DNA of 64,000 nucleotides from a phage, in the NCBI GenBank assembly GCA_019338205.1, contig GCA_019338205.1_4761.1. The stretch is one strand, 5' to 3'. Position numbers and translations under genes: made by a program. Positions 42,395 to 47,154 of the stretch are shown here, piece after piece (positions within the stretch are counted from its first letter, which is position 1; every line of letters begins with the position of its first letter). The notes beneath the pieces were generated by a model. That model made no database searches and was not told where the DNA came from. It worked only from the letters and a program-made list of their open reading frames with translations.

Positions 42395-43090
42395 ATGGAC
42401 TATCAAAAACATTATGATCGATTAATTGAACGCGCAAAGCATAGAACGCTTGAAGGATATAAAGAAAAACATCATATTATTCCTCGTTGTATGGGAGGCG
42501 ATGATAGTCCAGAAAATATAGTTGAGTTAACGGGGTCTGAACATTTTGTTGCTCATCAACTTTTAGCAAAAATGCATCCAACACATCACGGAATTGTACA
42601 TGCGGCGAAAATATTGATGGGGTCTACCAACTATAACAATAAACAATTTGAGTGGGTAAGAAAACTTGCGGTCGAGACTTCAAGAAAATTTCATACAGGA
42701 AGAAAAAGATCCGAAGAGACTAGACGCAGAATATCAGAAGCAACTAAAGGAAAGAGAAAAGGAATTAAATTATCTGAGGAACATCGACAGAAATTATCTG
42801 CTTCATTAAAAGGTAGAGTGTTTACAGAAGAACATAAAAGAAATATTGCGTCAAGAGAAATTACACAAGAATGGAGAGACAACATCTCTAAAGCGGGTAA
42901 GGGTAGAAAGTTGTCACAAGAAAACGTAGAGAAATGGAAACGTATTCATAACACGCCAGAAATGAAACAAAAATATAGTGAATTGTCAAAGTCTCGTCCG
43001 TATTTCACCTGTCCTCATTGTGAAAAAACAGCCAATCAGGGAAATTATGTTAGATGGCATGGTGACAACTGCAAGAAGAAGGTGGTATAA
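42395..43090 (+). CDS. HNH homing endonuclease (Mob-like, NUMOD-type repeats, C-terminal Zn-ribbon)
   Basis: 231 aa; HNH core KHHIIPRCMGGDDSPENIVELTGSEHFVAH; repeated basic modules (GRKRSEETRRRISEATKGK, KLSEEHRQKLSASLKGR); CPHC; inserted between 53 and 4. Confidence 0.75.
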   Translation: MDYQKHYDRLIERAKHRTLEGYKEKHHIIPRCMGGDDSPENIVELTGSEHFVAHQLLAKMHPTHHGIVHAAKILMGSTNYNNKQFEWVRKLAVETSRKFHTGRKRSEETRRRISEATKGKRKGIKLSEEHRQKLSASLKGRVFTEEHKRNIASREITQEWRDNISKAGKGRKLSQENVEKWKRIHNTPEMKQKYSELSKSRPYFTCPHCEKTANQGNYVRWHGDNCKKKVV

Positions 43091-43563
43091 TGGGTAATTG
43101 CAACACATATAAGGGTAAATATAGACCTGAAAACCCGGAGAAGTATAAAGGCGACCTGAAAAAAATCGTCTACAGGTCAAGTTGGGAATTACATATAATG
43201 AAATTTTTAGACCGCAATCCTAGAGTTGCAAAATGGGGATCTGAGACCGTAGTAATTCCTTATGAGTCATCAACAGACGGAAAAAGACACAGATACTTTA
43301 TGGATTTTTACGTTAAGTTTGATGATGGCAAGGAGCATTTATGGGAAGTTAAACCAGCTAAAGAGACAAGGCCACCGGAAAAGCCAAAAAGAATGACCGC
43401 GAAGACAAAGCAACGATATATGCATGAAGTATGGACATACACAAAAAATACTGAAAAATGGTTAGCTGCCGTGAAATTATGCCAAAAGCATAACATGGAG
43501 TTTAAGATCATAACCGAACATGCATTAAAGAAAGTGTTTGGCTTTAAAGGGCTTAACAAATAG
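43090..43563 (+). CDS. 4: head completion nuclease gp4-like (PD-(D/E)xK fold)
   Basis: 157 aa; candidate D...EVK catalytic motif (FMDFYV...LWEVKP); position next to gene 2 as in T4. Confidence 0.55.
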   Translation: MGNCNTYKGKYRPENPEKYKGDLKKIVYRSSWELHIMKFLDRNPRVAKWGSETVVIPYESSTDGKRHRYFMDFYVKFDDGKEHLWEVKPAKETRPPEKPKRMTAKTKQRYMHEVWTYTKNTEKWLAAVKLCQKHNMEFKIITEHALKKVFGFKGLNK

Positions 43564-43574
43564 AGGATAATATT

Positions 43575-44396
43575 ATGAGCGTATTTGAAATAATCACAGA
43601 AGACGAAAAGCCGTCTCCCCAAAAACGAAAGTCTAAACAGTGGGTCGAATTGGGTGTAGAATTTGCGAAAGCAAAAGCCAAAGGCATGACAGCTAAAGCA
43701 TTTGCAGATTCTAAGGGAATAGCCTATGCGACTTTCACTAAAAGTATGTCTCGTTATGCCAGCGAAATTAAAACAGCAATAGAAGTTGAAAAACTAAAAG
43801 GGAAAAGTGCAAAGGGTCTCAATAAGCAGCAACGCGCAATGATGATGATTAATGATTTTCGTGCGTCTATGCGTGCTGTATCAAAGAGTCGTCCTAAAGA
43901 AAAATCACAGGAATGGTTTACTAAAACAATAAAAGCGGGAATAAAGGGACACCAGATTGTAAAACCGCAAGTAGGGCGAATCTATACCTTTATGTATGAT
44001 GCTAAGTATAAAGACACTTTGCCATATTGGGATGTTTTCCCACTGATCATTTGTCTGGGTGATTCTAAGACAAAGGCGGGTAATACTGTAATGCTGGGTC
44101 TTAACTTACACTATGTAACGCCTAAAGCCCGTCAGCAGTTTCTGGAAGCACTTTTAAAGCAATATGCATCTACTCCTACCTTGAGTAATAAAACACGCTT
44201 AAAAATCAAATGGAGCGATGTAAAAGGTATGCGTGGTAGTGACCACATGATCAAAGCATATCTACCGGGACACATTAAAACAAAACTTGTTGAGATTAGC
44301 CCGAAAGACTGGAGCAATATTATCTACCTTAACACATATAAATTTGTTTCTAAAGGTAAAAACTATGATGCAAGGAAGGTGTGGAAGGATGCTTAA
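43575..44396 (+). CDS. 2: DNA end protector protein gp2
   Basis: 273 aa (T4 gp2 274 aa); basic; RBS AGAGGA; synteny 4-2-3-1. Confidence 0.7.
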   Translation: MSVFEIITEDEKPSPQKRKSKQWVELGVEFAKAKAKGMTAKAFADSKGIAYATFTKSMSRYASEIKTAIEVEKLKGKSAKGLNKQQRAMMMINDFRASMRAVSKSRPKEKSQEWFTKTIKAGIKGHQIVKPQVGRIYTFMYDAKYKDTLPYWDVFPLIICLGDSKTKAGNTVMLGLNLHYVTPKARQQFLEALLKQYASTPTLSNKTRLKIKWSDVKGMRGSDHMIKAYLPGHIKTKLVEISPKDWSNIIYLNTYKFVSKGKNYDARKVWKDA

Positions 44397-45417
44397 TATT
44401 AATTCCGTGGGGAGCAATCCCCACGTTTATTATCTTCGTCAACCGGAAGAAATAGAATACAGAGTAAACAAGGTAACAAAATCTCCTAGAGAATTTGCGG
44501 ATAAAGTTATTGAAAGGTGTAAACTTGTCGACCATACATTCTTAGGATTTTCTGGAGAATGGAAAGGAAAATTGACTAGATCTGTTATCCAATGCAATAA
44601 GCATGGAACTGTCTATGATGTTTCCAGTAATAGTTTCTATGCTAAAAAGGTTATTGTTGGTTGCCCTCAATGTAGGGGAGTTATGACAGAAGAGGAAGCA
44701 ACCAAATTCATTGAAGAAAAATGTAAAGATCTTGATTATGAATTTTTGGGATTTGTTGGTGGCTGGAAATCACAAATTACTAAGATGATTCTTAGATGCA
44801 AGAAACATGACCATATTTGGAAGAATACAAAGTTCTTTGATTTTAAAAATCATGGTACATGTGGTTGTAAGAAATGTGCGGCTGAACAATTTAAGACGGA
44901 ATATGTCGTTCCCGTGGAAGATGCACTATCTAGAATAGAAGATAAATGTAAAAAGTTAGGGTATGAATATATAGGTGTCGATGGTGAATGGATAGGTACT
45001 GCAAATTCATGGATAAAACTTAAATGTACAAAACATGACGCAGAATTTTCTGTAAGATATTGTACGTTCAACAGAAATGCTAAAGGGTGTCCGAAATGTA
45101 GTTCTTCTGGCTATCGTCCATCTGAGATGGGATATTTTTATATCCAGACGTTAGATGATAAATTTATAAAGTTTGGTGTAACCAATGAATTACCGGAAAC
45201 CAGAATGAAACAACATATGCAGAAATCTAAGTTTGTTCACAAACTTGTTTACGTCAAACAAAGTGTTGATGGCTGGATTCCGTGGGAACTTGAAAAGGAA
45301 ATAAAGAGAACTTATCATTGTGGCGTTGTTGATAAATCCATGTTGAAAGATGGATACACAGAAACTTTACCAATCACGGAACTTGATAACATAATTAAAT
45401 TAGCTGATACATATTAA
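44389..45417 (+). CDS. three-fold Zn-ribbon repeat protein with C-terminal T5orf172 (GIY-YIG-like) domain
   Basis: Three about 60 aa repeats (FLGF.GEW.G...C.KH...C.C, each ending CPQC / GCKKC / GCPKC) then GYFYIQTLDDKFIKFGVTNE...; start at ATG 44389 (RBS GGAAGG); inserted between 2 and 3. Confidence 0.5.
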   Translation: MLNINSVGSNPHVYYLRQPEEIEYRVNKVTKSPREFADKVIERCKLVDHTFLGFSGEWKGKLTRSVIQCNKHGTVYDVSSNSFYAKKVIVGCPQCRGVMTEEEATKFIEEKCKDLDYEFLGFVGGWKSQITKMILRCKKHDHIWKNTKFFDFKNHGTCGCKKCAAEQFKTEYVVPVEDALSRIEDKCKKLGYEYIGVDGEWIGTANSWIKLKCTKHDAEFSVRYCTFNRNAKGCPKCSSSGYRPSEMGYFYIQTLDDKFIKFGVTNELPETRMKQHMQKSKFVHKLVYVKQSVDGWIPWELEKEIKRTYHCGVVDKSMLKDGYTETLPITELDNIIKLADTY

Positions 45418-45423
45418 AATTAA

Positions 45424-45446
45424 GCCCGTCATTGACGGGCTTTTTA
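45424..45446 (+). terminator. intrinsic terminator
   Basis: gcccgtc-att-gacgggc hairpin followed by TTTTT. Confidence 0.55.
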
Positions 45447-45701
45447 TTATAGATCGATAGCATGAGCATAACCATGTAAGAAGTCTTTTAATTCTTCCTT
45501 ATTGGTAACACGCTGTAAAATCTCTAATGCCTTGTCGCGATCACGTAATGCACCTGAAAGGGATTTTATTTGGTCATCCCTTTCTGCAATCTGCTTAAGC
45601 AGATCTGTATTGCATTTAGACAAATAGAGAACTTCACCCCGCAATGTTGCCAATTCGTTATCCAGACGATCATAGAGTTTTAACAAAATGTCTTCTGTCA
45701 T
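45447..45701 (-). CDS. hypothetical coiled-coil protein (84 aa), convergent
   Basis: Heptad-like Leu spacing; only minus-strand gene inside the plus-strand 4-2-3-1 block. Confidence 0.35.
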   Translation of the reverse strand: MTEDILLKLYDRLDNELATLRGEVLYLSKCNTDLLKQIAERDDQIKSLSGALRDRDKALEILQRVTNKEELKDFLHGYAHAIDL

Positions 45702-46497: not shown

Positions 46498-47154
46498 ATG
46501 AAATTGATTGCACTTTGTGGTAAAAAGCGAGTAGGAAAAGATACTGCCGCGTTAATCATTGATGGACACAGTTATCAACTGGCAGCACCGATCAAAGAAA
46601 TCTTATGCGAATGTCAACCAGACTTAGGTCTGACTTATCTTGACTTTGACGGGTTAGGTCGTGACAGAGAAGCCGATCTAGGTATTGATACCTATACCGC
46701 GCATAAGTGGTTTATTCAGTGTCTGCTTATGCTAGATTCGAAGTATGGCGGTAGTTCCTTTACTTGTGATCGTCTGGCTGAGATTTACAAGGTCGTTAAT
46801 GAGATCGGCGAAAAACATAATAACGTCTGGTCTATTCGTCTCATGTTAACCACTCTCGGTACTGATATAATGGTTAACTTGATCAATCCGCTTTATTGGT
46901 GTAATCTCTTCGTGAATGAGTTTATGAAGCGCAAAAATGAAGAAGGGTATTTTGTAGTGGTTGATGTGCGTCAGCCTATTGAAATTGCTCTTATGCGTGC
47001 TATGGGTGCTAAGGTGTTGCATATTCAGCGTGATACTGGTATTGTATCGACTCACTCCACCGAAAAAGGAATTTTGCCTATTGACGGTGAAACAGTTATC
47101 ATAAATAATGGCACATTAGAAGAATTTGAAAGCGAGATTCTCGCGAACATTTAA
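46498..47154 (+). CDS. 1: deoxynucleoside monophosphate kinase gp1
   Basis: 218 aa; P-loop MKLIALCGKKRVGKDT and ...LGTDIMVN... align with recalled T4 gp1. Confidence 0.9.
   Translation: MKLIALCGKKRVGKDTAALIIDGHSYQLAAPIKEILCECQPDLGLTYLDFDGLGRDREADLGIDTYTAHKWFIQCLLMLDSKYGGSSFTCDRLAEIYKVVNEIGEKHNNVWSIRLMLTTLGTDIMVNLINPLYWCNLFVNEFMKRKNEEGYFVVVDVRQPIEIALMRAMGAKVLHIQRDTGIVSTHSTEKGILPIDGETVIINNGTLEEFESEILANI

Follow-up and report, generated by a model that had tools for sequence, protein, structure and literature searches.

The stretch of phage DNA considered here (64,000 nucleotides of contig GCA_019338205.1_4761.1 from assembly GCA_019338205.1; this whole stretch is called the window below) raises the question of what kind of gene has settled between gene 2, which encodes the DNA end protector gp2, and gene 3, and by what means it could have arrived there. 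A preliminary description, made from the letters alone, had noticed an open reading frame (ORF) inserted between these two genes, had read its product as three tandem Zn-ribbon repeats fused to a T5orf172 domain, and had proposed a sequence-specific nuclease or regulator. The insertion between genes 2 and 3 was placed correctly, and the modular fusion of fingers with a nuclease domain is real; of the two functions proposed, the nuclease is the best reading while the regulator fits less well. We consider the ORF, with a probability of about 75%, to be a homing endonuclease gene (HEG), free-standing and of the T5orf172 class, that is resident in the genus Krischvirus, homing itself being predicted.

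The window derives from Krischvirus (the RB49/Phi1 group of T4-type coliphages) and is 94-99% identical to ELT3, G2248, ECD7 and Phi1. A 4.2-kb query around the gene matches 59 phage records at 94-99% identity, all of them Krischvirus, and these 59 records are the relatives counted below. The ORF is open for 342 codons, its start ATG overlaps the stop codon of gene 2 (ATGCTTAA), and extra in-frame ATGs are found at 44365 and 44368. PHROG 681, named "endonuclease", matches the product with an E-value of 2e-79; in RefSeq the Phi1 and ECD7 copies are labelled "endonuclease" and the Skers copy "putative GIY-YIG nuclease family protein". Six copies were checked, and the ORF is unbroken in each of them; a tblastn search of the window for a second copy of the gene found none. 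In the ECD7 copy (L008:1482-2516), an in-frame 6-bp duplication, AATATT, is situated at the extreme start of the ORF, at the junction microhomology, and yields MLNININSVG.

The N-terminal and central parts of the protein contain three repeats of about 70 residues each (R1-R3 in Table 1). Compared in pairs, they reach Smith-Waterman scores of 86-115, whereas shuffled sequences average 24 (sd 5), which corresponds to z 13.6-18.5, and none of 2000 shuffles attains the observed score; the three tandem CxxC repeats noticed earlier are thus genuine, and an alignment artefact is excluded. Every repeat has the form C-x2-H, then 17-19 residues, then C-x2-C, and its cysteines are invariant or nearly so in an alignment of 45 homologues. 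The Pfam CapR profile (PF21817) matches the protein in three stretches above the gathering score (55.7 bits against a cutoff of 24.2, E 5.8e-15), the best stretch being residues 108-161 in R2. Each repeat has the two ligand pairs with which a CapR domain could hold a zinc ion, the ligand set and spacing deviating slightly from the CapR pattern (CxxC, 24-26 residues, CxC). The DUF723 and zinc-ribbon profiles of Pfam gave weak matches below threshold (Zn_ribbon_8, 16.3 bits against a cutoff of 34.4). The name "Zn-ribbon" is probably wrong for these repeats: according to Pfam and the literature they are treble-clef-like fingers, the ligands being in this case Cys-His and Cys-Cys. In the structural model every repeat is predicted to consist of a helix, three strands and a short helix; the C-x2-H pair is located at the turn between strands 2 and 3, and the C-x2-C pair in a loop or, in R2, at the N-terminus of a helix, which is more treble-clef-like. 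As CapR of the Vibrio cholerae satellite PLE was shown by electrophoretic mobility shift assay to bind DNA via its Cys pairs (PMC8096241), DNA binding by the fingers of the window protein is predicted by analogy with those experiments.

The C-terminus bears the GYFYI...KFGVT motif pointed out in the preliminary description. Among 19 homologous C-terminal domains, 12 match the profiles MUG113 (PF13455, best E 5.5e-8) and T5orf172 (PF10544, best E 1e-7), both of the GIY-YIG clan; the matching homologues include P0010, P0036, P0024 and the JSE-type protein discussed below. The domain of the window protein is predicted with a pLDDT (predicted local distance difference test) of 96 to have the order beta-beta-alpha-beta-alpha-(beta)-alpha, that is, a GIY-YIG-type fold, and in the predicted structure it resembles SLX1/HIGLE, I-TevI and UvrC. 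Since 12 of the 19 homologous domains match the profiles and the predicted fold is GIY-YIG-like, the assignment to T5orf172/GIY-YIG, made through homologues and fold, is sound. Eight residues (Y251, K261, G263, R272, E302, D321, G322 and E325) are invariant across 45 sequences of the family. To judge by the order of motifs, Y251, R272 and E325 should be the counterparts of I-TevI Y6, R27 and E75, i.e., the Tyr of strand 1, the Arg of helix 1 and the Glu. In this family, metal-dependent DNA cleavage has been shown for Odn only, a T5orf172 nuclease in which mutation of the conserved Glu abolishes cutting (PMC8263062).

The combination of such fingers with such a nuclease, which the preliminary description called unusual and did not recognise, is not new. 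Netter et al. (2021) reported homology between CapR and the N-terminal parts of ICP1 proteins ending in T5orf172, and proposed these proteins to be homing endonucleases (PMC8096241). Barth et al. (2023) found CapR, DUF723 or DUF4397 fingers in 200 of 229 T5orf172 HEGs, often in several copies arranged as "beads on a string"; according to the same authors, T5orf172 HEGs lie beside essential genes, and recombination shuffles their finger and nuclease modules (PMC10448857). Our tblastn search retrieved homologues in 454 phage records, including those of T5 (T5.141) and ICP1 (tcgB, "putative homing endonuclease"). The window gene is therefore an uncharacterised member of a described class of homing endonucleases.

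If the gene is mobile, its presence should vary among close relatives, and a comparison of this kind, proposed in the preliminary description, found it to be sporadic: a precise insert present in 11 of the 59 records, which represent nine distinct phages. Eight carriers have a near-clonal allele, hereafter ECD7-type, of 98.7-99.9% identity; for the Phi1 allele the value is 84.7%. The insert comprises 1,021 bp, measured as the distance between the two junction copies. Empty sites read GCATAA-N-ATTAAGCCCG, and occupied ones have TAATATTAA at the left junction and TAAAATTAA at the right one; in HEG-less loci it is precisely the stretch between the TAA-N-ATTAA microhomologies that is absent. The junctions were read at nine HEG-less loci out of the 59 records (KFS-EC, MIZ6, ELT4, W115, SSG23, G2494, Makalu_003, FL15 and MIZ4), and in all nine they are exact, with the terminator and then the minus-strand ORF coming immediately behind gene 2. 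A different CapR-T5orf172 gene is present at the same site in 5 of the 59 records (JSE, G37-3, AV108, PTE-Eco09). Its product consists of 380 residues with four CapR/DUF4379 fingers and a T5orf172 domain and is 27% identical to the window protein. Two distinct nuclease genes at one intergenic site are typical of homing elements. In PTE-Eco09 (L004:2454-3596) the JSE-type gene lies between gene 2 and ORF130 with a hairpin and an intergenic spacer of its own, and gene 2 of this phage is diverged over its full length.

The flanks of the insert were aligned over gene 2 and 1.7 kb downstream (2.5 kb, insert removed) for six carriers and eight non-carriers. Except for the end of gene 2, carriers and non-carriers are about 98% identical throughout, and because this between-group identity equals that within the groups, carriage of the gene is not tied to phage lineage. 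In the last 70-100 bp or so of gene 2, the identity between carriers and non-carriers is 80-84%, the value for the final 70 bp or so being about 81%. Thus, the window and KFS-EC differ by 19 nucleotides in the last 40 codons of gene 2 (9 synonymous and 5 non-synonymous codons) as against 10 nucleotides in the first 234 codons. Single-nucleotide polymorphisms farther upstream place the window on the KFS-EC/MIZ6 haplotype and ELT3, G2248 and Phi1 on the W115/FL15 haplotype; the recoded tract is 100% identical across all nine ECD7-type records. Such a deviation of the carrier allele in a short adjoining tract is the flank pattern of homing endonuclease genes. On sequence grounds, the recognition and cleavage site of the enzyme lies probably in the region of this tract as it stands in the empty allele, and carriers are probably immune through its recoding; in T4, SegG brings about co-conversion from a cleavage site distant from its gene (cited in PMC10448857). 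MIZ4 (L018:701-860) and MIZ5 possess the recoded tract (99%) without the endonuclease gene, and in kvi (L019:701-860), which also lacks the gene, the tract is chimeric and returns to the empty type about 20 bp before the stop codon. We suppose that these are either conversion tracts which ended before the gene or losses of the gene which left a resistant site behind. Three substitutions relative to the empty allele, at 44369, 44378 and 44381 (C to T, A to G and T to G, in GACGCAAGGAAAGTTTGG), are common to the ECD7-type, the Phi1-type and the unrelated JSE-type carriers, which hints that these positions matter for cleavage or expression of whichever endonuclease is located downstream.

The two alleles of the gene are themselves mosaic. 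At the DNA level, the window and Phi1 diverge only in two patches, 44290-44379 at the end of gene 2 and 44605-45096 from the end of R1 through R3, and are 96-100% identical outside them. Correspondingly, the nuclease domains are 100% identical as proteins, with a synonymous divergence (dS) of 0.035, and identity amounts to 93-94% in the N-terminus and R1, whereas R2 and R3 retain 62% and 54% amino acid identity with saturated dS of about 2 and about 1.7, respectively. Two metagenomic proteins add further combinations: P0001 combines window-type fingers and an ECD7-type flank with a nuclease domain that differs slightly, while P0002 has Phi1-type fingers, a nuclease of the P0001-like subtype and a Phi1-type flank. 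Judged from these sequences, finger and nuclease modules recombine, as Barth et al. described (PMC10448857). Flank type follows finger type in all four allele combinations, and this agreement, drawn from only four allele classes in close physical linkage, suggests that specificity and immunity are coupled. No donor of fingers 2-3 was found in the JSE-type protein, the gene-32-side paralogue of GEC-3S (see below), T5.141 or 44 database homologues; in the same comparison, each finger was closest to its counterpart in the other allele. The pattern speaks for old alleles rendered mosaic by recombination and against recent acquisition from an identified donor. That the ECD7-type and Phi1-type alleles, which share one insertion site, form a natural specificity-switch pair is a tentative idea, which we hold to be rather doubtful. 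If, in spite of that, fingers 2-3 do read the recoded tract, the allele pairs would bear the traces of an arms race in which endonuclease specificity is pitted against target immunity, and would give a first handle on the DNA-recognition code of CapR fingers, potentially useful for modular programmable nucleases.

As to expression, a G+C-rich, terminator-like hairpin is found within the first codons of the gene. Its 8-bp stem is present in both the minimum-free-energy and the centroid folds and is kept in the Phi1 allele; the RNA fold of 44350-44450 as a whole is no more stable than those of shuffled sequences (z -1.0), the local hairpin alone being notable. Since the alignment with homologues of other phages and of bacteria starts only at about residue 14 of the window protein, the N-terminal extension may be there mainly for this RNA element. 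The JSE-type gene has a hairpin too, located between gene 2 and its start. There is no sigma-70-like promoter directly upstream on the plus strand, and a perfect T4 late promoter (TATAAATA) is absent upstream of the gene; a TATAAATT box at 44337-44344 occurs in the ECD7-type allele only and is taken as weak evidence. Gene-linked substitutions convert AAAGTT to AAGGTG, a Shine-Dalgarno-like hexamer 8 nucleotides before the overlapping ATG, and the ECD7-type substitutions create the TATAAATT box together with both upstream in-frame ATGs. The overlap of the start codon with the stop codon of gene 2 suggests translational coupling, the hairpin probably limits read-through expression, and the endonuclease is probably expressed late and at a low level. 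Phage HEGs usually keep the expression of their nucleases low and late.

Taken as a working model, homing could proceed as follows. During mixed infection with a relative devoid of the gene, the three CapR fingers would bind the last 70 bp or so of gene 2 in its empty-allele form, and the GIY-YIG-like C-terminal domain would then cut near the bound site. Recombinational repair on the carrier genome would copy the gene, along with the recoded and uncleavable end of gene 2, to its place behind the stop codon of gene 2 and ahead of the resident terminator. The gene may be expressed by translational coupling to gene 2 or by read-through from it, with the hairpin in its first 13 codons holding the level down.

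Several points weigh against a homing endonuclease. The full window protein gives no Pfam match to T5orf172 or MUG113 at E <= 1, and its isolated C-terminal domain produces a sub-threshold match to the GIY-YIG profile PF01541 (E 0.045, 14.5 bits against a cutoff of 22.6), so the original T5orf172 call is borne out by homologues and fold and not by the window's own sequence. The second Tyr of the GIY-YIG motif is replaced by Phe, as in other T5orf172 domains. No relative of solved structure was found for the zinc-finger repeats by Foldseek against the PDB: the whole model gave nothing at E <= 0.001, and the weak matches of the fingers, to the tandem dsRNA-binding domains of TARBP2, R2D2 and NF90 (probability 0.23-0.44) and to a DUF4379 repeat protein of the trypanosome mitoribosome, are not significant. 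Nothing meaningful came from PDB sequence and profile searches in which the full protein and a profile of the C-terminal domain served as queries. The literature searched contains no cleavage, binding or homing result for any Krischvirus T5orf172 gene. Finally, the recoded end of gene 2 could be foreign donor DNA that came with the gene at its first arrival, and not an immunity tract.

Among the other explanations, the one that survives best, though we regard it as unlikely, is that of a domesticated or decayed endonuclease-like protein serving as a DNA-binding regulator or as a competition/exclusion nuclease against co-infecting phages or satellites. Both roles have precedents, as CapR is a repressor derived from such fingers, PLE CapR repressing the ICP1 capsid operon (PMC8096241), and in Odn a T5orf172 nuclease has been turned against a satellite (PMC8263062); the situation of the gene in a late structural operon and a nuclease domain scoring below the Pfam T5orf172 threshold would agree with such a history. 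However, the putative catalytic residues are invariant across the 45 homologues, the gene is not fixed in the genus, and its sporadic presence, the site-specific recoded flank and the second, unrelated allele at the same site are marks of a mobile gene that is, or was until recently, active, and not of a fixed regulator.

It is improbable that the presence/absence pattern results from ordinary recombination between short repeats or PeSL (promoter/stem-loop) cassettes, with the protein taking no part in its spread. Arbiol et al. did ascribe most gene differences between phi1 and RB49 to PeSL-mediated shuffling (PMC2839356), and the insert is flanked by 9-bp microhomologies with a stem-loop near each end. 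But these two stem-loops are unrelated in sequence, no repeat of about 100 bp in which an early promoter is joined to a stem-loop flanks the gene, and both the 70-bp recoded tract in the adjacent essential gene and the two nuclease genes at one site would be left unexplained. An anti-phage or anti-defence effector, conceivable as T5orf172 and GIY-YIG domains occur in defence systems, is very improbable indeed: the best PADLOC match (ThsB, E 0.0034, 15 bits) is not meaningful, the NCBIfam, PADLOC and Rfam searches gave nothing relevant that would support a defence-system or RNA-element reading, and the phage is strictly lytic, with no partner genes travelling with the endonuclease gene.

The surroundings of the gene are summarised in Table 1. 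The preliminary description was right in that a terminator and a minus-strand ORF follow the gene, but their association with it does not hold: in all the empty-site phages examined, which are relatives without the endonuclease, the terminator comes straight behind the stop codon of gene 2, and all 59 Krischvirus records have the ORF, at 95% amino acid identity at least and irrespective of how the site is occupied, while it was found in no record from outside the genus. Both are resident features of the genus. As the ORF occurs in all 59 records, we rejected it as a partner of the endonuclease; it was also rejected as a paralogue of gp57A, with which it gave no alignment, and searches of Pfam, PHROG and NCBIfam found no function for it.

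Table 1. Features of the gene 5 to gene 1 region of the window
Feature	Position	Strand	Remarks
Gene 5 and gene 53		-	Upstream side of the local map
HNH-NUMOD3 endonuclease gene	42395-43090	+	Between gene 53 and gene 4
Gene 4	43090-43563	+	
Gene 2 (gp2, DNA end protector)	43575-44396		
Recoded 3' end of gene 2	44327-44396	+	Linked to the endonuclease gene; probable target/immunity tract
Probable free-standing homing endonuclease gene	44389-45417	+	342 aa; Phi1 ORF130.1 homologue; from the ORF list
Left junction microhomology, TAATATTAA	44394-44402	+	
G+C-rich hairpin and T-run, terminator-like	44406-44435	+	Endonuclease codons 6-13; match CGTGGGGAGCAATCCCCACG TTTATTATCT
CapR-type zinc-finger repeat 1 (R1)	44479-44679	+	aa 31-97; C69, H72, C92, C95
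CapR-type zinc-finger repeat 2 (R2)	44680-44892	+	aa 98-168; C137, H140, C160, C163
CapR-type zinc-finger repeat 3 (R3)	44893-45108	+	aa 169-240; C213, H216, C234, C237
T5orf172/MUG113-like nuclease domain	45109-45414	+	aa 241-342; GIY-YIG superfamily
Right junction microhomology, TAAAATTAA	45415-45423	+	Includes the stop codon
Hairpin of the resident terminator (a T-run follows)	45422-45442		
Resident bidirectional intrinsic terminator	45422-45448	both strands scored	Not part of the insert
Minus-strand ORF, Phi1 ORF130 homologue	45447-45701	-	84 aa; phrog_17832, PHROG match 2e-57; resident, not part of the insert
Gene 3	45892-46482		
Gene 1	46498-47154		

A second and unrelated HEG stands on the upstream side of the region. 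It encodes an HNH nuclease with NUMOD3 motifs (phrog_655, "homing endonuclease", 5e-64), its stop codon overlaps the start of gene 4, and it is variable among the relatives, being present in MIZ6, ELT4 and PTE-Eco09 and not in Phi1, KFS-EC, ECD7 and ELT3. In the window, an HEG therefore stands on either side of genes 4 and 2, an arrangement resembling the "HEG islands" of Barth et al. (PMC10448857). The product of gene 4, head completion protein gp4, has a strong match to the N-terminal domain of TnsA-like endonucleases (PF08722, E 4e-21, 75.7 bits). In Cognac (L009:1-189), a minus-strand ORF of 1,023 bp is annotated just upstream of gene 2, in the place held elsewhere by gene 4, and may be another insertion or an annotation difference.

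Relatives of the protein occur at other positions and in other replicons as well. GEC-3S (L021:2267-3445) encodes a paralogue of 392 residues, 32% identical, immediately downstream of gene 32, a position that we take to be that of segG in T4. T5.141 is annotated as similar to ORF239c, an ORF of RB49. Two homologues from Salmonella enterica (L016:8001-9083 and L017:8001-9083; 28-30% identity, "GIY-YIG nuclease family protein") are situated close to where a lambdoid prophage ends; a GpA-type terminase is about 7 kb away from them, and chromosomal metabolic genes adjoin them.

The analysis corrects the "hypothetical protein" annotations in Krischvirus genomes and adds T4-type phages to the hosts of T5orf172/CapR HEGs, which T4 lacks. 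In the literature searched, no recognition or cleavage site has been mapped for any T5orf172 HEG, and the locus is a convenient system in this respect: these are easily crossed E. coli phages with one site in three states (empty, ECD7/Phi1-type and JSE-type), and in the natural alleles the fingers, the nuclease and the flanking target tract are set apart from one another. Such natural variants could help to show how CapR fingers read DNA.

Comparison with known systems sets the gene in place. ICP1 Odn (Gp88; PMC8263062) has a nuclease of the same family, its essential Glu corresponding, by the logic of the alignment, to E325 of the window protein; unlike the protein for which we propose homing, it has a RepA_N DNA-binding domain and a domesticated anti-satellite role. 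PLE CapR (PMC8096241) shares the finger family PF21817 and supplies the sole experimental evidence for DNA binding by this family and for the need of its Cys pairs; it is a 15.5-kDa repressor without a nuclease domain, whereas the window protein has three fingers and a nuclease domain. The T4 enzymes SegA-G and I-TevI resemble the window gene in being free-standing or intron-encoded in T4-type phages, in their "beads on a string" organisation and in their GIY-YIG superfamily fold; they also exhibit cleavage distant from the insertion site with co-conversion of the flank (SegG, cited in PMC10448857) and tight control of expression. Their nuclease domain, however, is N-terminal and is combined with NUMOD or helix-turn-helix binding modules, while that of the window protein is C-terminal and is combined with CapR fingers. 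Pfam finds no NUMOD or helix-turn-helix match in the window protein, and PF01541 stays below its cutoff, so it is not a member of the Seg/I-TevI family: it works like a Seg enzyme, in its predicted activity, from outside the Seg family. With the T5orf172 HEGs (ICP1 gp165, gp174 and tcgB, and those of T5-like, Aeromonas and Vibrio phages; PMC10448857), the window gene shares the N-terminal tandem CapR-type fingers and the C-terminal nuclease, the sporadic presence, the neighbourhood of essential structural genes and the modular shuffling of fingers and nuclease. It differs from them in the lineage of its host, here a T4-type Krischvirus, T4 itself being without T5orf172 genes (PMC10448857), in a nuclease domain that has diverged past the Pfam profile, and in finger ligands of the form C-x2-H...C-x2-C instead of CxxC...CxC.

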